From a virus (Duplodnaviria; Caudoviricetes), in the IMG/VR virus record IMGVR_UViG_2731957577_000001, positions 64,001 through 128,000 of that record: a stretch of 64,000 nucleotides of DNA; one strand, 5' to 3'. Positions within the stretch are counted from its first letter, which is position 1. Every line of letters starts with the position of its first letter. Below are positions 3,602 to 56,155 of this stretch, piece by piece. Made by a program: the position numbers and the translations under genes. The notes below the pieces were generated by a model. It was given only the letters and a program-made list of their open reading frames with translations. It ran no database searches and was not told the origin of the DNA.

Positions 3602-4600
3602 TTGATCTTTTCCTACTACTTGGACGTCGATAAGACCCATTTGATCAATATGAAGTTCAACGTCAAGCAGATCCTGGTCCAGAATTCCATGCTTCAAGTC
3701 ACGTTTGACGCAGTGGTCGAGGAAGTTCTGGATGGAACCGTGCTTCACTCGGAATCTCAAAGCGGTGCATTCACGCTCTCTTCCAGCCGCGTGGATGATC
3801 CCACATCTTCGGATGGATACGACATCAACTTCATCCGCACCCGATATGCGGATCAAAACAAGTGGATCTTTGAAATCCAGAACAACAGCCAACCCGATCA
3901 GGTTGTCCTCGTGGGGCTTTACAGCACAACGGCAACCGGAAACCCGCTGGGCGAGGACATCATTCAGGATGATGACTCCTACAACTTTATCCTGAAGGGC
4001 AACAACATCGGCCAACTCGAAGAAACGTATGTGCCGCCGGTGCTCACGCAGAATGTGGTCAACACGGACTTCTCACAGCTCGTGTTGCCGTACGGATTTA
4101 CCACGGTATCCGGCATATATGACTCTGCAGTGGGTAGGTTCTTGCTCAGTGACTTTTCGCATACGTTCCCGAACTCGATTGATCCGGATACAGCCTTTAC
4201 CCTGACGGCGAATCTCGCGCCGATGCAAACCGATTCCGTCAGTGACGAGATCTTTCATGTCACACTTCACGGCATTGGTCAGGTGACGTTGTACAAGACG
4301 TACTTGGCATACCTGCGGGAAGGTGACGACCCGAGCAACACGATAACGATCTTTTTCGGGGCATCGGCCGATCCAACTTGGTTCCTATCGCCTCCACCGT
4401 ACTTTACCGACAAATCAAAGTTCAGTGTCCAAGCGGACGGAGCCGGAGGCGTAACCGTCAAATACGCCGGAGTATCTTTGATTGGAAGTTATGACCCATC
4501 CAATCCATTTGCAGGCGTGGACCTGCAAGCCGCAGCGAGAGCAGACAAAAGTCTGGTGGTCTGCGCCTTTGACAACTACACCATTGAATTCTTCAAGTAA
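3602..4600 (+). CDS. Hypothetical beta-rich acidic protein (possibly virion-associated)
   Basis: 332-aa ORF with AGGAGG RBS; S/T/D/F/V-rich. Confidence 0.6.
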   Translation: MIFSYYLDVDKTHLINMKFNVKQILVQNSMLQVTFDAVVEEVLDGTVLHSESQSGAFTLSSSRVDDPTSSDGYDINFIRTRYADQNKWIFEIQNNSQPDQVVLVGLYSTTATGNPLGEDIIQDDDSYNFILKGNNIGQLEETYVPPVLTQNVVNTDFSQLVLPYGFTTVSGIYDSAVGRFLLSDFSHTFPNSIDPDTAFTLTANLAPMQTDSVSDEIFHVTLHGIGQVTLYKTYLAYLREGDDPSNTITIFFGASADPTWFLSPPPYFTDKSKFSVQADGAGGVTVKYAGVSLIGSYDPSNPFAGVDLQAAARADKSLVVCAFDNYTIEFFK

Positions 4601-4947: not shown

Positions 4948-5286
4948 ATGACAGAAGCCGAGCGCAGAGAACTGGTGGAGCGATACAAACAAGAACGAAT
5001 CCGGCAGGTCAACCTGACCGCCCCTAAGAGCGCCATCTATGGCAAGGAAGACATGCTGAATCTGCCGCGGCATCGCGTCTTGCATAAGTGTCACAACTTC
5101 GAGGAATGTCCGCTGTGCTACAAGTGCCGGGCCTACGACCCGAAATACGAATCCTGCCGGCGCTGTGTGCTGGCGAAAGAAGGTCTTTTGTGCGACACCT
5201 CCTATCATCGGACTGACATCATCAATCGCATGATCACCCGAGAAAGGATTGATCTGGATGCCAAAGAGCAACAGAGGGCCGTTTAA
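4948..5286 (+). CDS. Cys-rich (Zn-binding) hypothetical protein
   Basis: GAGGAGG RBS; 'CHNFEECPLCYKC...CRRC...C..H'. Confidence 0.6.
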   Translation: MTEAERRELVERYKQERIRQVNLTAPKSAIYGKEDMLNLPRHRVLHKCHNFEECPLCYKCRAYDPKYESCRRCVLAKEGLLCDTSYHRTDIINRMITRERIDLDAKEQQRAV

Positions 5287-5290
5287 CGGC

Positions 5291-5539
5291 ATGACGTGGG
5301 ACCAGGTCGCCCTCATCATGGCGTCCCAAGCGGCTTCCCGGCCTGTCTATTGTCGGTACTGTGGAATGGATATCACACGTCCATCCAGCAAACAGCCCAG
5401 CGGACCGAATGGCGCGTGGCGTGCGCATCTGGATTGGGAGATTCAAAACGAGGCTCACCTGAGTTGCCACGAGAAGTACGTCATCGAGCAACGCAAGCAA
5501 GCCATGCAACAGTTCCATCGAGGAGGAGCTATGTCATGA
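5291..5539 (+). CDS. Zn-finger hypothetical protein
   Basis: 'CRYCG...HLSC'; fits operon spacing. Confidence 0.5.
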   Translation: MTWDQVALIMASQAASRPVYCRYCGMDITRPSSKQPSGPNGAWRAHLDWEIQNEAHLSCHEKYVIEQRKQAMQQFHRGGAMS

Positions 5540-6024
5540 CAGACATGGAGAAGAAGTTGATGTTCCGCAGTGAAATTGAGAGCGTAGAAACCACGGAGAT
5601 TCGGGAATTCCTCATGGAGGCTATTGAGAAAGCACCCGACAGCTTCTTTGAAGATGAAGAACTGGTCTCCAAGGCCAAGAAAGCATTCCGTGTTGTCCAA
5701 CACCTGTTGGATGAGGAAAAGACCAAAGGCGGGGTACGGGATATCATTCTCGCCGGCACATTGCTCTGTGACACGCTCTACAACGAGATGCCCGAGCCGT
5801 TCAAGGCGTTGCATCCTTGTGCCCCACGCATTTACTTTGCCGATCTGAAACATGAAGTGCATCAGGCAATTTGGGATGGTATCTTCCAGATCATCGAGTC
5901 GCATGAACATGACGTCAACACATCGCCGTTGCTCGAAGCCAAAGCCGGCACGCCAGGGTACTTCGTATTCTTGGCGTACTCGTTCATGAAGCCTGACTTC
6001 GTAAATGTAACGATAGGCGAATAA
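5536..6024 (+). CDS. Degenerate HD-domain-like protein
   Basis: 'DIILAGTLLCD', 'HP', 'IIESH' resemble HD-fold helices but the HD dyad reads CD. Confidence 0.45.
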   Translation: MTDMEKKLMFRSEIESVETTEIREFLMEAIEKAPDSFFEDEELVSKAKKAFRVVQHLLDEEKTKGGVRDIILAGTLLCDTLYNEMPEPFKALHPCAPRIYFADLKHEVHQAIWDGIFQIIESHEHDVNTSPLLEAKAGTPGYFVFLAYSFMKPDFVNVTIGE

Positions 6025-6130
6025 TCGATATGCCGCCGGCCCCAATCCTAGGTTGGTTGGGGCTGTTCCATCTATCCAAGCGTTGCCCCATAGCGTCTTT
6101 CAAAAGTAAAATGCGAATACAACCGCTGTA

Positions 6131-6144
6131 TGTAGTGCATTACA
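6131..6144. promoter_or_regulatory. Palindromic operator upstream of nrdJ
   Basis: TGTAGTGCATTACA (13/14), downstream of TTGCCC-18bp-TAAAAT (6083-6112). Confidence 0.6.
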
Positions 6145-6195
6145 TAATGTGCATTGCATCGAGGTGACTATATACGACGTGGAGGCAAAGGAGCA

Positions 6196-8400
6196 ATGAG
6201 TGTACAGCTACGTGGTTTCCATAGGAAACTCTTTCAGACTCGATATGCTCAAAAGAGCCTGGATAAAGAAAGGTACATTGTACCGGGCGCCGATGTTGTG
6301 ACGTTGATTCGGGATGGGAAGTACCCGGTGCGTGAGACCGCCACCGTTACCCGTGTAGACGGCGAGACCGTTCACATGATCCTCACCAGCGGCGATATGG
6401 TAGGCCAAGAATTCAGCCAGAACATCGCTCATGTGGATGCGCTGGTGGAAACAGAATGGGAGCATGCATCGGAGCGCGTTTCAACCGCTGTGGCCGGGGT
6501 AGAGAAACCCGAAGTCCGCAAGTCCCATCAGAAGAAGTTCCATCATGCCATATCAAACTTTTTATTGATCCCAGCCGGCCGCATCCTCTCTGGCGCCGGA
6601 GATGACTCCTTCGTCACTCTGTTCAACTGCTATGTGACGGCAATCAAGCCACCAAAAGGCCAAGAACGGTATGGTCGCGACAGCCGTCAAGCGATCTTTC
6701 ACACGATGGGCTTCATCACGGAAATCATGGCGCGCGGTGGCGGGAATGGAACCTGTCTATCGGTTCTGCGACCGAAGTATGCGACGTTGTCTCAAACCAA
6801 GGGCAAGTCAGCGGGCGCGGTGCATACCGGCAACATGATCAGCTCCCTCACAGACTGGGTGGAGCAAGCCAACCGTCGTGGGGCCCAGATGCTGACCTTG
6901 CACGACTGGCACCCCGATGTATTCTATACCGCCGATGAAAACGACTCTCTCTATAATGAGGACTTCATTGGTGCCAAGAATAAGCCAGGCTTCATGGAAG
7001 GCAACAATTCCTCCGTTTTGGTGTCCGATGCCTTTATGCATGCGGTCGAACATGATTTGAATTGGGATCTTGTATTTCCGGACACCACGCATCCCGCCTA
7101 CAACCTTGAGTGGGATGGAGACCTCAACAAATGGAAAGCCAAGGGCTATCCGGTCAAAGTCTATCGCACGATCCGCGCGCGAGACATGTGGAAGAAGATC
7201 ATCCACTGCAATTGGCGTTCCGCCGAACCCGGCATCATCTTCATTGACACTTGCAATCGGATGCACAATGGCTGGTACCTCGGCACGATTATGGCCACGA
7301 ACCCATGCGGCGAGCAGCCGATTCTCGATGGCTCGACCTGCAACTTGGGCGCCATCAACTGGGGTCGCATGATTAAGCCGGTTGGAGAAGACGAGCTGGG
7401 AACCATCTATGACGTCGATTGGGATCTGCTGAAAAAGACCGTATGGGCAGGTGTCCGGTTCCTGGATAACGTCATTGACGTCAGCTTTTATTGGGACAAG
7501 GACCTTGAGCGTTGGCAAAAGGGGGAACGCCGTGTCGGCCTTGGCGGCATGGGCATCGCAGACTTCCTCATTGCCATGCGGAAGCGGTATGGCTCCAAAG
7601 AAGGCAACGAACTCATCGAGAAGGTCATGCGGTTCATTCGTGACGAGGCATACCGTTGCTCGATTGAATTGGCCAAGGAGAAAGGGCCATTCCCGTTCTT
7701 TGATCGCGACAAGTATCTGGAGAGTGGCTTCGTCAAGACCCTCCCCGAAGACATCCAGCAAGCGATCTATGAGCATGGCATTCGCAATTTGACCTTGCTG
7801 ACCTTTGCGCCGACCGGTACGACTGGCAGTGTCACGCCGTCCCTGCTCGATCCCGAAGGATCCGTGTCCACGGGTTGCGAACCCCACTTCGCCATGAAAT
7901 ATCACCGGCTTTCGCGGGTGGGTTCGACCATTCAATATGCAGGTGTCGCAAAAACATGGATAGATGAACATCCAGGACAGGAGCTTCCAGAGTGGTTTGT
8001 GGGTGCAATGGATCTCACCCCGGAAGAACACGTGGGTGTCCAAGCCGCGCTCCAGAAGTACGTCGACAGCTCCATTTCTAAGACCGTCAACTGTCCGGCC
8101 GATTACACGGAAGAACAAGTGGCCGAGGTCTACATGCTGTTATACAAGTCCGGCTGCAAAGGCGGGACCATCTATCGGGACGGTTCCCGTTATGAACAGA
8201 TCCTCAGCCTCACGGATGAAGAGGAAGCACCGGAGACGGCGGAAGAAAAGGCCGGGGAGACCAATGAGATGCCGGCGGTTCAAGACAAATATGCCAATTG
8301 GGAGTGCGTCGGTTGCGGCAGCAAATCCTTCGTACTTGTTGAGAATTGCCCGCAATGCACGGAGTGTGGTCTACAAGTGTGTTCCATTGGAGGACATTGA
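6196..8400 (+). CDS. nrdJ: Class II (adenosylcobalamin-dependent) ribonucleotide reductase
   Basis: 'PAGRIL', 'LFNCYV', 'RRGAQM', 'AEPGIIF', catalytic 'TNPCGEQ', 'CNLGAIN', 'APTGT', 'SISKTVN', 'KGGTIYRDGSR'; C-terminal Zn ribbon; no R2 subunit nearby. Confidence 0.92.
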   Translation: MSVQLRGFHRKLFQTRYAQKSLDKERYIVPGADVVTLIRDGKYPVRETATVTRVDGETVHMILTSGDMVGQEFSQNIAHVDALVETEWEHASERVSTAVAGVEKPEVRKSHQKKFHHAISNFLLIPAGRILSGAGDDSFVTLFNCYVTAIKPPKGQERYGRDSRQAIFHTMGFITEIMARGGGNGTCLSVLRPKYATLSQTKGKSAGAVHTGNMISSLTDWVEQANRRGAQMLTLHDWHPDVFYTADENDSLYNEDFIGAKNKPGFMEGNNSSVLVSDAFMHAVEHDLNWDLVFPDTTHPAYNLEWDGDLNKWKAKGYPVKVYRTIRARDMWKKIIHCNWRSAEPGIIFIDTCNRMHNGWYLGTIMATNPCGEQPILDGSTCNLGAINWGRMIKPVGEDELGTIYDVDWDLLKKTVWAGVRFLDNVIDVSFYWDKDLERWQKGERRVGLGGMGIADFLIAMRKRYGSKEGNELIEKVMRFIRDEAYRCSIELAKEKGPFPFFDRDKYLESGFVKTLPEDIQQAIYEHGIRNLTLLTFAPTGTTGSVTPSLLDPEGSVSTGCEPHFAMKYHRLSRVGSTIQYAGVAKTWIDEHPGQELPEWFVGAMDLTPEEHVGVQAALQKYVDSSISKTVNCPADYTEEQVAEVYMLLYKSGCKGGTIYRDGSRYEQILSLTDEEEAPETAEEKAGETNEMPAVQDKYANWECVGCGSKSFVLVENCPQCTECGLQVCSIGGH

Positions 8401-16076: not shown

Positions 16077-19000
16077 ATGTGCAACCTGGTTCACCTGCAC
16101 GTTCACTCCGAGTTTAGTGAGTTGGACGGGCTCTCCAAGGTGCAAGACCTGGTGGCGCGTGCGAAAGAGATCGGGAGTACCGCCCTGGCCCTAACAGATC
16201 ATGGCGTCATGGGTGGTATTCCCGATTTTATCACCGCATGCGAACAAGCAGGAATCAAACCCATCCCGGGCGTCGAAGCGTATATGACGCGCAACCGGCT
16301 GCTCAAGGGCGAGTTTCTCAAGGAACGCCGGCTGGAGTTGTGCGAGAAATACAAGATCAAGGAGAAGGTCCTCAAGACCTTTATCCGCACCATCGAAAAG
16401 CAGCCGGCCAGCTTCATGGATGAAGCGACGGAACTACTCAAGGACTATCTCATGGCTCCGCCATCGGGCGACCTCTTTCATCTGACGTCGGGCGAGCTAT
16501 CCAAAGACGACGTTCTGAAAGAATTCCATCGGGAGGTCTATGACTATCTCTCGTATGACAACTATCACATCGTCCTGCTGGCGATGAACAATCAAGGGTT
16601 GGAGGATTTGTATGCCATCATCAGCGACGCTCATCTTCATGGATTCTATAGCGATCCTCGCACTGATCTTGCTTTTATTCGCGATCATGGGCTCGGGAAG
16701 AATCTCATTGCGACTTCGGCGTGCCTCGGCTCTTGGTTCGCTCGGCTGTGCCTTGCTGGGCTTATTGATGACGCTGTTGCTTTTATAGAAGAGTGCAAGG
16801 AGACGTTTCATGCGTTTTACCTGGAGAAACAAGCGACCCATCTGCCAGAGCAGATTCAGCTCAACCAGATCATCGACGATTTAGCGGCGCGGACAAACAC
16901 ACCGAAGATCATCACAACCGATGCGCATTATGCCCGCCAAGAGGACATCGACACGCATGACATCCTCATCTCGGTCAACTTCGGCAAGTGCGTCTTGGAT
17001 CCAGATCGCCTCCGTTACGCACCGGAATTCTGGATGAAATCCGAAGAGGAAGTGCGCAGCATTTGCGACGATGAGGAAGCCATTCTCAATACGAAGCGCA
17101 TTGCCGAGATGGTCAATGTCGCGCTTCCGAAGGAGCCGCTATTTCCAAAGTTCATTGTCGAAGAGGGAGACAGCCCGGAAGAGATTTTACGCAAGACAGC
17201 CTGGGATGCGCTGTTCCACTACGTCATCAAGAAGCCAGTGGACCTCGAGCGCTACTGTCAGCAGCTGGCCTATGAACTTGATGTCATTACAAGTCTTGGC
17301 TTTGCCGACTACTTTCTTGTGGTTTCGGACTACATACGCTGGGCGAAACAAAATGGGTATGAAGTCGGGCCTGGACGCGGGTCGGCCGCGGGTTCTCTGG
17401 TCGCATTCATGCTCGACATTACGACACTTGACCCCATCAAAAACAACCTGATGTTCGAGCGGTTCTTGAACCCCGAAAGAGCGGGGTATCCGGACATAGA
17501 TGCAGATTTCAGCTATGAGGCCGCCAAAGCGGTTCAACAGTATCTTAAAGACAAGTATGGCCAGGATCGGGTTGCACAGATTGGCACCTACGGCACCTTC
17601 GCCGCGCGGAAGGTCTGTCGTGCAGTGGGGAAGGCCCTTGGGTATAGCGATCAGGATCAGGACAAGTTTGCCAAGGCCATTCCGGCCAGACCCAACATCA
17701 CCCTCGAGGAAGCCTACAACGAAGAGCCGTTGGTCCAGGCCTACGCTCGCCAGCATCCTGACTGGTGGAACGCCATGAAGAAACTCGAAGGACACATCAG
17801 TCATCATGGTGTGCATGCTGGAGGCGTCGTCCTTTCTCCAGTCCCGTTAACGAAAGTGGTACCGCTTCGTCTGGATAGCGAAGGCCTTGCGACCACGCAA
17901 TACGATATGGAGTGGATTGAGAAGTTCCTGGTCAAGTTCGACATCTTGAAACTCGATACGCTGGATCTCATCAAGTACACCATGCAATACGCGGGCATCT
18001 ATGGGAAAGTCGATCTGAATGAAATTGATCTCAATGACCCGAAGGTGTACGAGGAGATCTACAACAAGCTGAATTTGGCCGGCATCTTTCAGTGCGAGTC
18101 GAAACTTTACCATGACATCATCTCCGCGATGAAGCCGAACTGCTTTGAGGATATCTCGGTCATCGTGGCGCTCGGCCGCCCAGGACCATTGGACCTCATC
18201 CCGGACTACATCGATCGGAAGTGGGGCCGAAAGAAAGTCGAGTACCCATTGCCTGAACTGGAGCCGATTCTCAAAGACACCTATGGAGTCTGGGTGTATC
18301 AAGAACAAATGATGCAGGCCAGCGTCATTCTCGGCGGACTCACACGCGGTCAGTCCGACATGATCCGAAAGGGTGTCGCCAAGAAAAAGCATGACCTCAT
18401 GCACAAGTGGATCGACCTGATGATCTACGGGTCTGAGCGGTACAAAGAGATGCGCCGCGAACACAATGCCATCGTCAATGCGATGAAAGCACGCGGGGAA
18501 GAGGTCCCGAAAGAGATGATGGACAAATACGATCCAGACCTGGATAAGGTTCCGTATGTGGAAGGTGCCATCAACCGGGGTTTTGATGAAGCCACCTTGC
18601 TCAAGATCAAAGAGGACTGGATCAAGTTCGGTAACTACTGCTTCAACCGCGCACACTCGGCTGCATACGCCAAGTTGTCGGTTCAAACGGCATGGCTCAA
18701 GACGTACTATCCTGTCGAGTTCATGGCGGCACTCCTGACCATTGCTGGTGACAAGAAGGCCAAGGATGGCACGCCAAAGACGGTCCTGTATATGCAGGAA
18801 TGCGAGAAGATGGGCATCAAGATTCTGCCGCCGGATATCAATGAATCCAACGCATCTTGGACACCCGTTGTCCATCCGGAAACGTACCAGAATCACCTCA
18901 AGGTCCACGTGGATCTGGGAACGAAGCCGGAAGAAGTGCAACTCAAGCCCGATGCCATTCGCTTTGGTCTGGGCGCCATTGCAGGGATCTCCAAAGAATC

Positions 19001-38413: not shown

Positions 38414-41400
38414 TCAGAAGAGCGCCAGCTCGTATTGGCCTTCGGCGACAAGCTCTTTCTTGCGCTTGCCCTTGTTGTAAGACGCTGCGTCTTGCACCAG
38501 CGTGAACATCTCCTCGACATGGGCCAGATAATCGGCCAAGTCGAGGGCAGATATCCGGCCGGCGGCCACATCCTCTTGCATCTGCTTGACGATGCCTTGC
38601 TGGATGCGACGGACTTCCTCGATACCCAGCGGGTTCATATCGTACCCGTCATAGCCTTCAAACGTCGCATTCTGCAGCTCCTCATACGTCGCATTGATTC
38701 GCTGCCAGCGGCTCTCGATGGAACTGACATCATCCAGCGTGCCTTCGTTGACGAGTTTCTTGGCCAACGCGGTGATGCCCTCACCACTATCCGCCATCGC
38801 CCGCAAGCCTTCCTCAGAGAACTTGCCTTGCAGCGCCAATGCGGCGTCAATCTTGCGAGCAATGTGTTCCAAAACATTGGCCTGGATAGTATCTCGATAA
38901 ACCATCGTGTAGACCTCGACCGGTTGCGTCTGCTTGATCCGCCAGGAGCGGCGGCTGGACTGCATGTAGTTATAGGTGGAGTAATCCATCTGGTAGTAGA
39001 TGATGGTCGGGAACATGAGCAAGTCGAGACCCACGGACACCAGGCGCGGGTTGGTAATCAGAACATCCCAATCATGCTTCTCCATCATCTCATGCAGCCA
39101 GGCTTCCCGGTCCTCTTGCTTCGGCATCTGGATACCGTCATAGACACCAGAGGCCTTTAGGATCCCGACATTGTATCCATCCGCCTTGAGTTTCTCGTAC
39201 AGGTACGTGTCGACGCCATTGGATCCTGTGAACCGGCAATACACCAACACCTTTCGACCGCGACGGTGAATCTCATCGTCGAGCTTCAAGGTCAACTCAT
39301 GGTACTTGGTCGGAATAAACGTGGACGGATCGAAGTTCGTAGGCACCGTGATCACATGCGTGAGTCCTTCATTATCCTCATACGTGATGGGACCCCAATT
39401 CCACGGTGTATCCGAGTATTGATACAACGTGTTGATGTACGTCGACACATGCCGCATGCCACCGGTCAGGAACAGACTCTGACGCATGATGCTACCGATC
39501 TCGTCTTCCACTTGCTTGTAAGCGGCGAAATGCCTTTCATCCATCTCGACGAAGATGGGCTCTTCTCGATACGGCGGCAAGGCATATCCGAGGTCGGCCA
39601 GTTCCACAAAGGCACAGTTGCTAATCAAGTATCGGGAGAACACATGCGGTGAGACACCCGCACGCTCCCTCATGCCGGACTTCTTTCGGTTCGACAACGG
39701 TCTCCCGTTCCCCAGGTGCTGTTTGTACGAGTGTTCATAGACCCCGTACCGCTCGATGAACAGGGACAAGTCGTTGTAGCTGATGCTCTCCCGAAGCAAA
39801 CGCTTAGGATCCAGACGCGCCAAAAGGTAGAAGATGTCGGACGCCATGCCACCGAGCAACGTCCCGGTCAGCAGGATCTGCTTCTCGGTATGATTGATCA
39901 GCTGGCCAAACGCCTTGGCGCGGTCGGTCTCGCCGCTCTTGTATTCATGAACTTCGTCGGCGATGAGATACTTGAAGAACCCGCGCCGAAGACGCTTATT
40001 GATCATCCATGCCGGAGACACCTTCCGATTCAGGGAGTCTTTCTTGAGGAGCGCAGGCCGCCACAAGACAAACCCACATTCCTGCTCATGTTTCGACGGA
40101 TCCTTGACCATGTGCTTAGGTAAGTCCGCCGTGCGAACCCGATTGCGGCACACATAGTTCTCGGCCTTCATCGTGTTCATCCACTTGCCGTTGCGCTTGG
40201 TTTGGAAGAAGTGCTCATCGGCCGGCTCCTTCTTCCGAGCCATGAGCAGGCCGCCACACTGCGGGCAATGAAACCCGGTATCGGTCGTCACGACGGTCTC
40301 TTCTTCCCGACCGGTATTGATGTTGAAATACGGTTCTCTCCGGAACCGAATCCGAGCCTTTTCCCCATTGGCTTTCCGTTCCTTGGCGTCCGCCGCGTTA
40401 TACCGCCAATCTTGAATCGGCTCCATCGGATACGTCGCCTTTGCCACATCGGAGGACATGACCCAATACTCAATCTCACTGGGCCGATAGGGCATCTTCT
40501 CCATCTTCAAGACGTTTCGCCATGAGGTGATTTCATATACCTTGGCGCCAGGGACACGCTCTTTGATCTCCCGCTTCCACTTCTCGACCATAATACCGGG
40601 AACGAACACCAGCGCCCGGTACGGATCCACCTTGCCCTTTGACATATGCTCGGTGATATAGGGAATGACCGCACCCATCGCGGTCTTGCCTGTCAGTTGT
40701 GTTACCGTATGGGCTTTTTATCCCATACTTCTAACGGTTCATATTCCCGTTAGCTCAGCATACCTTTTCACCCTCGACTCAACGTTAGGGTGGCGCGGCC
40801 TCGTGGGAGCATTATTCCTGTTACCGGTCAGCTCCTATGCGTTGCCCCTGACTGGGATTTGCCCAGCCTTCGGTTCGGGTCAGCATCTCAGCCTTCCCGC
40901 TTAATTCCGCGCTATTGCCCACTACATTTCTGCAGTGGCGGGCATCATCTACCCATCTCGCCCACGACGAAGCAATACTTCTCGTCCTTGAGCGTCTTGG
41001 CAACCCCCATCACCACGTCGGCCTGTGGCGGAAAGAGACCCGTGACCCCATTCTTGTTGGCGTGCAGGTTCACGTCATAGAACGCCGGCGAGTGTTTCTC
41101 CTTGGTCGGATCAAATCGAATCTGGCTATTCTCCTGAATCCGATCGCCCAGCGCGCTGGCAAAGTGGCTCAGGTACGTATCGAGAGAGTCGCAATCCTTG
41201 AGAACCGACTGTTCATCAGTCCGGCCATCATCAAGAAGTGCAAAGTCCAGATCCAGAGACTGAATCCCCTCGGTGATGATGTTCTCCAAGTCGCGTTCCG
41301 TAATCTGAAGCAGACCGGCCTTGAGCGGATACTCATTGCCATAGCAATGAACCGTCAGCTTTCGGAAGTAGCCGAGGTCGATGCACTGTTGAACAATGTA

Positions 41401-41925
41401 ATCCGCCCACTCTTCCAGCATGGGGGTGTTGTAACGATCATTGAGGATGCGGAAGATCTGCTTCTCAATATCCCCATCCCACGCCAGAATGAGTTCTTCG
41501 GGTGGCCGGCGCGGTTCAAGACCCTGTGCCAATCGCTCATCCTCTTCTCGCTGCCAATCCTGTCGAGCCTTAATGTTCGGCTTGGCACACTTGGCAACGA
41601 CCAACATGTGGGTCAAATCCTCGACCCGAGTTTCAAACACGTCAAACGCATTGCGGTCGGGCATGACGACATCGAAGCAGGTATGGCCCTTTTCGTAGGA
41701 ATTGCCTTCCGCGCGCCGAATTTGGCCGGTCTTAAAGTCGTTCATGAATTCGACGACTTGATGCACCTTGCTGTCGGCACCAATCACGTTGGCTAGATAC
41801 ACAGTGCGATGACGCCGCTGATAATCTACCACGAGCAGATCAATATACGCCTGCGCGCGCTGGTGCCGAGCATACATTTCGAGCAAATAGATCTCGTTGC
41901 TCTGAAAATCCGCCACTTTGAACAC
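38414..41925 (-). CDS. SF2/SNF2-like helicase, two exons (41925-40951 and 40693-38414), 1084 aa when spliced
   Basis: Splicing restores Walker A GEMG|TGKT; 'DEVH', 'LTGT', 'GLDL', 'QSSRRSWRIKQ'. Confidence 0.88.
40694..40950 (-). mobile_element. Group I self-splicing intron without ORF (257 nt)
   Basis: Follows exon U, ends in G; P1 GGGU/GCCC with U.G pair; core-like segments AATTAAGCGGGAA, CCGAACCGAAG, GCAACGCATAG, AAGGTATGCTGAG (P7 GCATA/TATGC); removal restores frame and motif. Confidence 0.88.
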
Positions 41926-41928
41926 CTC

Positions 41929-43179
41929 TTACATGAGTTTGTGAAATTGCCCGTGACGATCTAAGAACTTCACACCGATGTGGTAATACTCTCGTTCCTT
42001 GATGCGCGTTACACCTTCTTCATCTTCTTCCGTCGTCTCTTGCGACATCTTGACGACGCTCCCCTTGACCAGATGCTGGTCGGGGCCCGTTCCGATGTAT
42101 CCATTCAGATACCCAGACGCCAACATCAAGGCAACGTGACCTTTATGAAGCTGTGTTGGTGGTTTGGGAACCTCGTTATCCAGAACCTGCGAGTACGTCT
42201 GCTGATACGAAGAAACCAGGCTCGACCTGCGGATGAACGACAGCGCTTCTTCCGCGGTTACCGGACCAACTCGAAAGTGCAAAACGTCTTCTTGTCGTTT
42301 CGAAGGAACCTGATACAGCGGTTGCGCTTGAATCGAGATCACCGGAATTTCTTTGTAGGGACGATACTTATACTGCATCAGCTCATACGCATACTCGGGA
42401 TCCCGAATCGCCTTGGGCCGCTTCCGCGCAAAGATAATGCACTTTCTCTGTTCCTCATACTCTGCGTCATCTTGCCGATAGACCCGGATATCGTCGTACT
42501 GATTGGCCAGCTTGAAGCAAATCTGGCTGTCGATGAACTCCTTGGGCGTGACGAAGATGAGGATGCCATTCGGGGCCAGCTTATCCGAAACCAGATTCAG
42601 CAAGAACTTGTCCCAACGGTAGGTCACCATCCGGCGTTCTTGCTCCCGCTGCATCCGGCGGAAGGCAATTTCCCGTTCCTCGATGGTCTTTCTCACCTTG
42701 GCCTCAAACTTCTCCCGACGCTTTTGGATCTCTTCTTCGGTCAACCCCTCGTCACCAAAGTCAATGACGTCCTCATCTTGTGCCTCTTGTGCTTCCAGCA
42801 GCCGGCGGACTTCCGCTTCAAAGTCTGGAATCGTGAAGGGGTCATAGTCCCGGAAGATCTCATCAATCAATCGGCTGTCCACATCCGGGTTCATGACCAC
42901 CAGCGAGAAGGCTTCCGGCGTCACCTTGGACTCATTTTTATACGAGGACGTGCAGACCTTCGTGAACCTTTCCCGCGCGCGATTGGCTTGCCATTGATTT
43001 TCCGTGACCCCATACCGATAGGTCTCCGGGTGCATCCTTGTAATCTCATACAGCACTTCCCCATCGCCGCACCGATAATCCAGAGCGGTGACGGCCTGGC
43101 CCTCTGGGAACTTCAAATACGTGCGAATCACTTGGCACGTAAACTTGCTCAGTGGCTCATTCATCCACCGTGCGTACAT
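41929..43179 (-). CDS. Class I SAM-methyltransferase-like protein (DUF6094-like), degenerate
   Basis: 'LDYRCGDG', 'YGVT', 'FSLVVMNPD', 'L.PNGILIFV.P', 'L..GH..L.LASG..NG'. Confidence 0.65.
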   Translation of the reverse strand: MYARWMNEPLSKFTCQVIRTYLKFPEGQAVTALDYRCGDGEVLYEITRMHPETYRYGVTENQWQANRARERFTKVCTSSYKNESKVTPEAFSLVVMNPDVDSRLIDEIFRDYDPFTIPDFEAEVRRLLEAQEAQDEDVIDFGDEGLTEEEIQKRREKFEAKVRKTIEEREIAFRRMQREQERRMVTYRWDKFLLNLVSDKLAPNGILIFVTPKEFIDSQICFKLANQYDDIRVYRQDDAEYEEQRKCIIFARKRPKAIRDPEYAYELMQYKYRPYKEIPVISIQAQPLYQVPSKRQEDVLHFRVGPVTAEEALSFIRRSSLVSSYQQTYSQVLDNEVPKPPTQLHKGHVALMLASGYLNGYIGTGPDQHLVKGSVVKMSQETTEEDEEGVTRIKEREYYHIGVKFLDRHGQFHKLM

Positions 43180-54565: not shown

Positions 54566-56092
54566 TCATCGTCTCTTGGCGAGGGAAATCAGGGTCGGGT
54601 GAACCTCAAGCAACTGTTGATACAACGACTCAAAGGTCTCGCGAATATCCCACTGCGCTTGTTCGCTCGTGCGCAGATTGATGAGATGATACGCTTCCCA
54701 CAAGTTAAAGTGGGCCACGATTCTGCGCCGATGACAGTTGAGAACGCAATACTCGCGATAGCCGAGCTCTAATATATCGTATAGGGCTTTGGCTTTCTCT
54801 GCGACCTCATAGACGATATCCTCAAGTCCTGCTTCCTGAATGCGCGGTGGTACGGTAATGCCAAGGTTTGCGCTCGGCCGGCTGAACACAAAGTTCGTTT
54901 TCCGGTTGTGACGAAGCAGCTGGTGCCAACTGGCTTCCGAAATCAGCAGTTCCGCTTGGTAATCCACCTGCTTGAACATCTCGGGCGGAACATCATGCGT
55001 CCCCATTTCCCACAAGAGATCTTGGATGGACTCAACCAGATACGATTCACTCATCGTCCGCGCGCGGGCCAGCGCCTCCCGGAATCGAAGGCCCTGCTCC
55101 TGAACCAGGACTTGCGCGATGATGTTCACCATTGCGTGACGTTCCGAAGGTGCCTTCTGAAGGCCCACGTAACTTACTTCGGGAAAATCGGGGAAGTATT
55201 CCGTCGTAAACCGATGTTTGATCCGTGCCTTACTCTTCGCCATATATTCAGAAGGCTCGGCATGCTTGAGCAGTGTCGGCAAGATCTTGGAGATCTCCTG
55301 CTTGAGATTGTCGGCGAGCTGATGAACCTCGGCAAAGTCTGAGTTGTACAGTTTGACAATGCCATCTCGCCAGGCGCGGCCGTTGGCTGTCATGCCAAGA
55401 TTCGTGAACATGGCCAGTGGCAACACGTAGCGCGCGTCTTCAAAGGCGAGCTTACGCAAAGCGACATCTCGCTTGGTTGATTCGCTAAGACTTGCCGGCA
55501 ACAGTGCGTCCTTGTCTTTGTCCTTCAGATGGTTGTACACGCCCTCAATCAACTGTTCAAAGGCGTCGTAGCACTCGTTCATCAGCAATTCAAAGCGCTC
55601 GTGGCGCGGATCGTCTTTCGGAATCGGGTTGTACCAGTCGCCGCGCTTTGGCTGCTGATACCGCTGGCTGTACTCGGTGATCGAGAGAAACTCATTCGAG
55701 AGTTCCAATTCGGCCGAAGCGAGTCGAGACACCTTTTCAATTCCCACATGCGCTACGGCGTGTTCGGCCACGGAACTGTGCCCGTAATTCACGGTCCATT
55801 TTTCATGGAACTGGGCAGCTCGCTCGGACAAAGGCTTGAGATCCAGTGTCCGTCCATCGACTTCAACATGCCCCTTCTCCAGGGCTTCACGGAGGAGTTC
55901 CTTAAAGGACTTGGGGCTTCGAGAAACCCATGCAAACAAAACCGCAACGAATTCTTCGGGCAAGTTGGTTACGCCATAGACATTCCCATCCAGATTCGTG
56001 ATGAACGGAGATAAGTCCACGGCTTCACGGGGCTTTTCCGTCGGCCGGGAAGCTCGGCTCTTGTTCTTCTTTTGCTCCTGGGTGTGTGCCAA
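54566..56092 (-). CDS. thyX: Flavin-dependent thymidylate synthase, tandem-domain ThyX
   Basis: 'YGH.SVAEH', 'E.SQRY', 'EDARYVLP', second repeat 'QLLRHNR', 'LR....AQWDIR'. Confidence 0.88.
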   Translation of the reverse strand: MAHTQEQKKNKSRASRPTEKPREAVDLSPFITNLDGNVYGVTNLPEEFVAVLFAWVSRSPKSFKELLREALEKGHVEVDGRTLDLKPLSERAAQFHEKWTVNYGHSSVAEHAVAHVGIEKVSRLASAELELSNEFLSITEYSQRYQQPKRGDWYNPIPKDDPRHERFELLMNECYDAFEQLIEGVYNHLKDKDKDALLPASLSESTKRDVALRKLAFEDARYVLPLAMFTNLGMTANGRAWRDGIVKLYNSDFAEVHQLADNLKQEISKILPTLLKHAEPSEYMAKSKARIKHRFTTEYFPDFPEVSYVGLQKAPSERHAMVNIIAQVLVQEQGLRFREALARARTMSESYLVESIQDLLWEMGTHDVPPEMFKQVDYQAELLISEASWHQLLRHNRKTNFVFSRPSANLGITVPPRIQEAGLEDIVYEVAEKAKALYDILELGYREYCVLNCHRRRIVAHFNLWEAYHLINLRTSEQAQWDIRETFESLYQQLLEVHPTLISLAKRR

Positions 56093-56155
56093 CCATCGCA
56101 CCTCCAAAAAGATGAGGAGAACGTCTGTCCTCCTCATTGGGTCTCAGTCTGCTCT

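Follow-up and report, generated by a model that had tools for sequence, protein, structure and literature searches.

The helicase gene and its insertion

The stretch of DNA analysed here (the window, 64,000 nt in length) comprises positions 64,001 to 128,000 of the IMG/VR virus record IMGVR_UViG_2731957577_000001 (Duplodnaviria; Caudoviricetes). On its minus strand lie two apparent open reading frames (ORFs) of 326 and 754 amino acids, which an earlier inspection of the letters alone (the sequence-only reading) took for the two parts of one superfamily 2 (SF2) helicase gene, separated at 40950..40694 by 257 nt that it regarded as a group I intron without an ORF of its own. The place and length of the insertion proved exact. 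Removal of these 257 nt in silico yields a frame of 1084 amino acids without a stop codon, the joined exons reading GAGATGGGT-ACAGGCAAG, and the joined protein can be aligned gap-free over GEMG↓TGKT (the arrow marks the insertion point) to 13 unsplit homologues of 1079–1159 amino acids, all of which carry (E/P)MG-x-GK(T/S) at the junction. The nearest of them, P0003, shares 71% identity over exon 2.

Exon 1 encodes an N-terminal region of ∼320 amino acids without a Pfam family, followed by the first half of the Walker A motif (VVGEMG); read alone it is the 326-amino-acid ORF, whose stop is a UGA at bases 4–6 of the insertion. Exon 2 supplies the second half of the motif (TGKT), a Cys-rich insert, an SNF2-related domain (SNF2-rel_dom, 28.6 bits; cut-off 24.9) and Helicase_C (27.3 bits; cut-off 23.5). 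The helicase is also matched by phrog_62, ‘DNA helicase’ (1.4e-38). Standard annotation was expected to report a pseudogene or two genes, and public gene calls do list exon 2 as a separate protein of 754 amino acids that begins at position 40678, with a Met just past TGKT (P0002). The GTGKT of the Walker A motif exists only in the joined protein. With its Pfam domains and a GxGKT Walker A motif, the predicted host protein is an SNF2-like SF2 helicase, and the comparison with homologues confirms, at the level of sequence, that the apparent 326- and 754-amino-acid genes correspond to one helicase. The exons are open over 325 and 759 codons, and the conserved helicase motifs, aligned to those of the homologues, are all kept; that both exons remain open and conserved argues that splicing occurs.

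A second, unsplit and distant helicase paralogue is present in the same genome (G000:C28:3687-5033; 32% identity, 1107-amino-acid frame). Close orthologues of the helicase were not found in 60 related genomes, which held only unsplit paralogues of ∼30% identity.

An uninterrupted frame would likewise be restored if the gap were passed by ribosomal bypassing or another form of recoding, or if it were removed from the DNA rather than by RNA splicing, and nothing specific speaks for either. No pair of take-off and landing codons and no flanking recombination repeats were seen, and 257 nt far exceeds the 50 nt gap that is bypassed in T4 gene 60. The group I architecture set out below accounts fully for the boundaries, and we give these explanations almost no weight.

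Architecture of the probable intron

We conclude that 40950..40694 is very probably an ORF-less group I intron with a variant P7, perhaps of the IA2/Twort-like kind, which separates the codon for Gly from that for Thr in the helicase Walker A motif. The element starts with AGAUGAUGCCC and ends with ACACAACUG, so that the 3' junction reads AACUG↓ACA. The sequence-only reading had described a U before the element, a G as its last base and a U.G pair in P1, and all three are found: GGGU of the exon and the first intron base pair with UGCCC, which places the wobble at the 5' splice site. The proposed helices follow in the order P1-P2-P3-P4-P5-P6-P7-P7.1/7.2-P3'-P8-P7'-P9-P9.1 (Table 1), P7 crossing P3 to give the pseudoknot.

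Table 1. Positions in the window of the two helicase exons and of the proposed parts of the intron
Feature	Position	Strand	Description
Helicase exon 1	41925..40951	minus	ends GUC GUG GGC GAG AUG GGU (VVGEMG)
ORF-less group I intron (probable)	40950..40694	minus	257 nt; after U; last base G (omega-G)
Helicase exon 2	40693..38414	minus	begins ACA GGC AAG ACC (TGKT)
P1	40940..40954	minus	exon GGGU and intron A1 (40954-40950) pair with internal guide UGCCC (40944-40940); 5-nt loop
P2 hairpin	40919..40938	minus	CCACUGCA-GAAA-UGUAGUGG
P3, 5' strand	40907..40912	minus	GCGCGG; pairs with 40798-40793; 6/6 pairs covary
P4-P6 domain	40850..40906	minus	J3/4 and P4 AAUUAAGCGGG, P5, P4' CCCG, P6/P6a
P7, 5' strand	40836..40840	minus	GCAUA where the classical sequence is GACUA; pairs with 40762-40758 (UAUGC)
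P7.1/P7.2-type hairpin	40806..40835	minus	GGAGC...GCUCC, between P7 and P3'
P3, 3' strand	40793..40798	minus	CCGCGC
P8	40769..40792	minus	CACCCU...AGGGUG
J8/7 and P7, 3' strand	40758..40768	minus	AAAAGG and UAUGC
P9, P9.1, tail	40694..40753	minus	CUAACGG/CCGUUAG; GUAUGGG/CCCAUAC; to omega-G

P4 opens with a stretch, AAUUAAGCGGGAAGG, that resembles the classical P element. P5 is small and closed by a GAGA loop (GGCU-GAGA-UGCU), and P6/P6a is formed by CC..GGCUGGG and CCCAGUC..GG. The loop of P9.1, AUAAAAAG, is conserved, and the 3' tail, GGUAACACAACUG, is single-stranded. IA introns typically have an additional P7.1/P7.2 element separating P7 from P3'; a hairpin in this position is present here and it covaries. 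The minimum-energy fold of the element contains P1, P2, P3, P6, P7.1, P8, P9 and P9.1 and reaches -97.5 kcal/mol (z = -3.65), a value that none of 200 shuffled sequences equalled or bettered.

No ORF of at least 40 amino acids lies wholly within the intron on the sense strand, and a Pfam search of the three ORFs that overlap it (79, 60 and 96 amino acids) gave no match, so that no hidden endonuclease was found. The 3.63-Mb genome holds a single copy of the intron, and it was not found in the 60 related genomes. A mobile repeat was considered and rejected in view of the single copy and this absence.

Relatives in other phage genes

In blastn searches against phage records, halves of the intron matched unannotated gaps in split phage genes. 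The order in Alicyclobacillus phage MMB025 is DNA polymerase, endonuclease, match, DNA polymerase; in a Bacillus phage the match lies upstream of a truncated replicative helicase; and in Exiguobacterium and Listeria phages it lies at a terminase gene adjoining an HNH or other endonuclease. Exact copies of a 19-mer that covers P6'-J6/7-P7 are present in 91 viral contigs and in 100 genome contigs.

Two exact-pattern scans of genome contigs supplied full-length relatives in genes for ribonucleotide reductase (RNR) and for PolA, a family A DNA polymerase. The RNR copies, from Parageobacillus, Anoxybacillus and Bhargavaea, interrupt the gene at NPCG↓EQPL and measure 258–259 nt, or 1200 nt where an ORF has been inserted; the PolA copy lies at NFG↓VMYG. 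The guide, read by eye, varies with the exon (RNR, GUGUGGU/GCCUCAC; PolA, UUCGGU/GCCGAA), and omega-G is present in every relative for which a boundary was set, as in every allele at the helicase site. These putative introns occupy textbook homing sites in genes of DNA metabolism.

The 1200-nt RNR introns carry an ORF-bearing insert of ∼940 nt (Bhargavaea, L012:320-1539; Anoxybacillus, L016:3697-4916) and lie in RNR genes of prophage type. The Bhargavaea gene also holds a second, classical intron nearby (L012:2230-2661), which is positive with the Rfam group I model RF00028. The IMG/VR contig L022 has one classical group I intron and two matches to the subfamily with the GCAUA P7 within 2 kb (4209-4493, 5216-5413, 5989-6201).

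A family model and covariation

From the helicase intron and three relatives we built a covariance model, R1, of 229 positions and 42 pairs. In the 88 sources searched it made 106 matches, the helicase intron and the intron of locus L006 among them, at sites that include RNR, PolA, terminase and DnaB genes. Across these matches (93 distinct rows) standard pairing occurs in 97.9% of cells, both sides have changed in 41 of 47 pairs, and the covariation score is 0.458 as against 0.114 for shuffled alignments and ∼0.06 for slid partners; this main count comes from an alignment fitted to the model and is biased towards it, a bias mitigated by the two results that follow. First, the P7 pseudoknot stands outside R1, as a model of this type has no place for one, yet the GCAUA/UAUGC pairing, noted as a variant P7 in the sequence-only reading and present at the positions given in Table 1, is formed in 96.4% of cells across the family; two of its pairs show compensatory change (AU to GC or CG, and CG to AU), whereas 70 of 72 rows retain the first G-C pair. 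Secondly, RNAalifold, applied de novo to a MAFFT alignment of 36 members, recovered P3, P4, P6, P7.1, P8 and P9.1; of the 37 pairs it predicted, 27 show compensatory change.

R1 also bears on a different kind of explanation, in which the insertion is no intron but a miniature transposable element or a gene for some other structured non-coding RNA, as a structured RNA without an Rfam match might suggest. The element is present once in the genome, and no target duplication is seen, the exons running on without a break where they are joined. Its relatives lie always in conserved codons of essential phage genes, in sense orientation and with the U...G boundary, and R1 cross-matches proven group I introns. 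An insertion of another kind is thus very improbable.

Is the intron decayed?

A further explanation has the element as a group I intron that has decayed and ceased to splice, the helicase being then a pseudogene or two separate polypeptides. This explanation can draw on most of the points that weigh against an active intron. P1 is short, with four exon pairs and one intron pair; no convincing pairing of the 3' exon (ACAGG) with the P1 loop was found that would form P10; and the inner stem of P7.2 is reduced in the helicase copy to ∼2 bp. The intron lacks a homing endonuclease and has one genomic copy, and so gives no indication of having moved recently. RF00028, the one curated group I model used, made no match at its gathering score (50 bits) in the window or in the whole genome, and at E ≤ 10 it found nothing in 851 nt around the intron, where only chance-level matches to SAM-VI and snoRNA models appeared. 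Gene callers already report two proteins.

Decay nevertheless seems improbable. In 85 other members 59 columns show at least 95% conservation, and the helicase intron agrees with them at every one. Because these near-invariant columns are intact, we regard its core as not decayed; every helix is paired. Both exons are open and retain the conserved helicase motifs, and the break falls inside the P-loop, so that neither half alone could bind ATP.

The silence of RF00028 we judge to be a false negative: the model works in the loci studied but appears blind to the subfamily. It made no match at the subfamily members in L002-L006, L012-L018, L022 and L218, and scored other introns in these and the same-site loci (L007, 97.5 bits; L010, 58; L220, 51.6; L219, 48.4; L012, 77.9; L022, 95.8) as well as the three orf142 introns of Staphylococcus phage Twort (63.6–100.9 bits). 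R1 in turn matches introns that RF00028 recognizes (L010, 51.7 bits; L219, 45.1; L007, 24); of the three orf142 introns of Twort it matches two, weakly but significantly (28.1 and 26.4 bits). Because RF00028 scores other introns in the same loci, and because R1 links the subfamily to RF00028-positive introns, we do not count the miss against the intron. The sequence-only reading had named the lack of a covariance-model hit, together with that of spliced cDNA, as grounds for rejecting an intron; the covariance-model test turns out to be misleading. A study of Bacillus phage introns states explicitly that phage variants may escape the models of Rfam and GISSD (PMC11878797, 2025).

In the alignments made by R1, P7, J8/7, P8, P9, the P9.1 loop and the tail UAACAnAAnUG correspond between the helicase intron and RF00028-positive introns. 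CAACGCAUAG of the helicase intron falls on the classical R element CAACGACUAG, and AUGUAUGCUGAG on the S element GAUAUAGUCUGA. The variant P7 is thus the classical P7 in which the second pair and the third have changed places.

Alleles at the Walker A site

Several shorter homologues found by protein search begin right after the Walker A motif, and the DNA of seven of them was examined; alleles were counted from the protein search together with contig look-ups. Searches of species-representative genomes added little: with P0003 as the query none was found, and with an alignment as the query only two.

An intron of the subfamily with the GCAUA P7 lies at the Walker A site in L006 (332 nt) and L218 (∼300 nt). 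Against the helicase intron these two show compensatory changes in P2, P3, P6, P7, P7.1, P9 and P9.1, and both retain the GNRA loop of P2 despite an altered stem. Classical group I introns occupy the identical position in L007/L008, L009, L010, L219 and L220. Like the helicase intron they follow the GGT of GEMG and precede T/SGK, with U before them and G as the last base. They differ in being a separate lineage of 382–1096 nt with textbook P, Q, R and S elements, one of which, that of L007/L008, contains a LAGLIDADG homing endonuclease ORF. Three of them, with the RF00028 scores given above for L007, L010 and L220, exceed the gathering score, that of L219 falls just under it, and that of L009, which is cut off, reaches 26 bits.

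Intron-less alleles, for which a search had been proposed, were found in L215, L216 and L217. The uninterrupted site reads GAGATGGGnACAGGnAA, and in L215 the sequence at the insertion point is GAGATGGGG↓ACAGGCAAGACC. The Gly codon before the insertion is GGT in all seven intron-bearing alleles in which it can be read (the window, L006, L218, L007, L010, L219 and L220; L009 is cut off) and GGG, GGC or GGA in all three intron-less alleles (in L215 at ∼4960). This bias fits either the need for a U.G pair at position -1 or co-conversion of the flanking exon during homing. Boundaries, pseudoknot, covariation, homologues in classic sites and intron-less alleles agree in supporting the probable identity of the element as an ORF-less group I intron.

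Genomic context

The window encodes DnaB, RNR, a DnaE-type polymerase, a beta clamp, DnaG, UvrD and ThyX. Outside the window, the same contig has a Terminase_6N match in a 596-amino-acid frame and a marginal Phage_capsid match (C7:172136-172579 and C7:180651-181136), and homologous helicases lie on contigs of 195–229 kb, one of them labelled a plasmid. We infer that this contig, which carries the helicase, represents a phage-like replicon of about 200 kb; at ∼198 kb it looks like a jumbo phage or a phage-plasmid with replisome genes of its own.

Directly upstream of the helicase is a gene for a DUF6094 methyltransferase (41929-43179, minus strand), a position kept in L215, L218 and L220. The pairing of methyltransferase and helicase suggests a possible resemblance to DarB-like antirestriction proteins. 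A ThyX-like ORF (54566-56137, minus strand) encodes 523 amino acids, about twice the size expected of ThyX, and the Thy1 domain is matched in two stretches of it; the ORF may have arisen by duplication, fusion or insertion.

Expected splicing and its consequences

Catalysis and splicing in vivo are inferred: what is established about group I intron chemistry leads one to expect the usual two-step reaction started by guanosine. In it the primary transcript would fold, and a free guanosine would dock in P7 and attack the phosphate after the U of the U.G pair of P1. The 3'-OH of exon 1 would then attack after the terminal G, ligating the exons into an mRNA for the 1084-amino-acid helicase with an intact P-loop. 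Unspliced RNA would give the 326-amino-acid N-terminal fragment and, at best, a C-terminal fragment lacking the P-loop; as neither has a complete P-loop, helicase activity should depend on splicing. Having no endonuclease gene and one genomic copy, the intron would not be autonomously mobile, and it may have been inherited vertically or have moved in trans or by recombination.

Taking the loci together, we suggest tentatively, and with slightly more doubt than confidence, that introns with the GCAUA/UAUGC P7 form a large and coherent subfamily, mostly borne by phages and prophages, with at least 190 loci matched by exact-pattern scan in Bacillota and several other phyla and with every member tested missed by the only curated Rfam group I model, and that the Walker A codon is a newly recognized homing hotspot for introns of two lineages. 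If this is true, surveys based on RF00028 count too few of the introns that phage genes contain, and a model or subgroup of its own may be merited for the subfamily. For annotation, other public entries of this helicase family are split in the same way. For method, a match to a single curated group I model is an unsafe test, and simple family-specific modelling can recover a missed subfamily. The Walker A site itself allows empty alleles to be set against introns from two lineages, both ORF-less ones and ones that bear an endonuclease.

Comparison with known introns

The orf142 introns of phage Twort, self-splicing members of subgroup IA2, resemble the helicase intron in the order of their helices, down to the additional hairpin that separates P7 from P3', and like it they are ORF-less, compact (∼250 nt) and situated in phage genes; under R1, P8, J8/7, P7', P9, the P9.1 loop and the 3' tail of two of them align with it. 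They differ in their P7, GACUA/UAGUC rather than GCAUA/UAUGC, the second and third pairs being swapped, in the sequences of P4-P6, in their host gene, and in being scored by RF00028, which gives the helicase intron no score. The RF00028 alignment of the Twort introns (L214:2107-3044; 16606-17543 of the record) ends ∼37 nt before the end of the R1 alignment at ...UAACAUAAUUG, and RF00028 seems to lack P9.1 and the tail part of these introns. Subgroup IA2 has been described as heterogeneous (PMC11878797).

The RNR and PolA relatives stand closer, with 74–90% identity to the helicase intron from P3 to the 3' end and with the P7, P9.1 loop and tail in common; they differ in host gene and hence in guide, and the RNR copies have no P2. 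The T4 td, nrdB and nrdD introns and those of SPO1 and SPbeta are phage-borne group I introns in genes of DNA metabolism. R1 made no match at E ≤ 0.01 in the T4, SPO1 and SPBc2 records, which indicates that their introns are not close relatives of the helicase intron.

An SNF2-like helicase had been thought an unusual host. A full-text literature search turned up no earlier account of such a gene with a group I intron, which lends this view slight support, but several alleles are split at the same codon by introns of two lineages. A group II intron has been described in a DarB-like/SNF2 helicase of a Streptococcus phage (PMC12350094), and group I introns in phage DNA-metabolism genes have long been known (PMC3984707). 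The helicase intron leaves the known working of group I introns unchanged. As predicted here, it is a new case of the known phage group I introns, to whose targets it adds the P-loop of an SNF2-like helicase.

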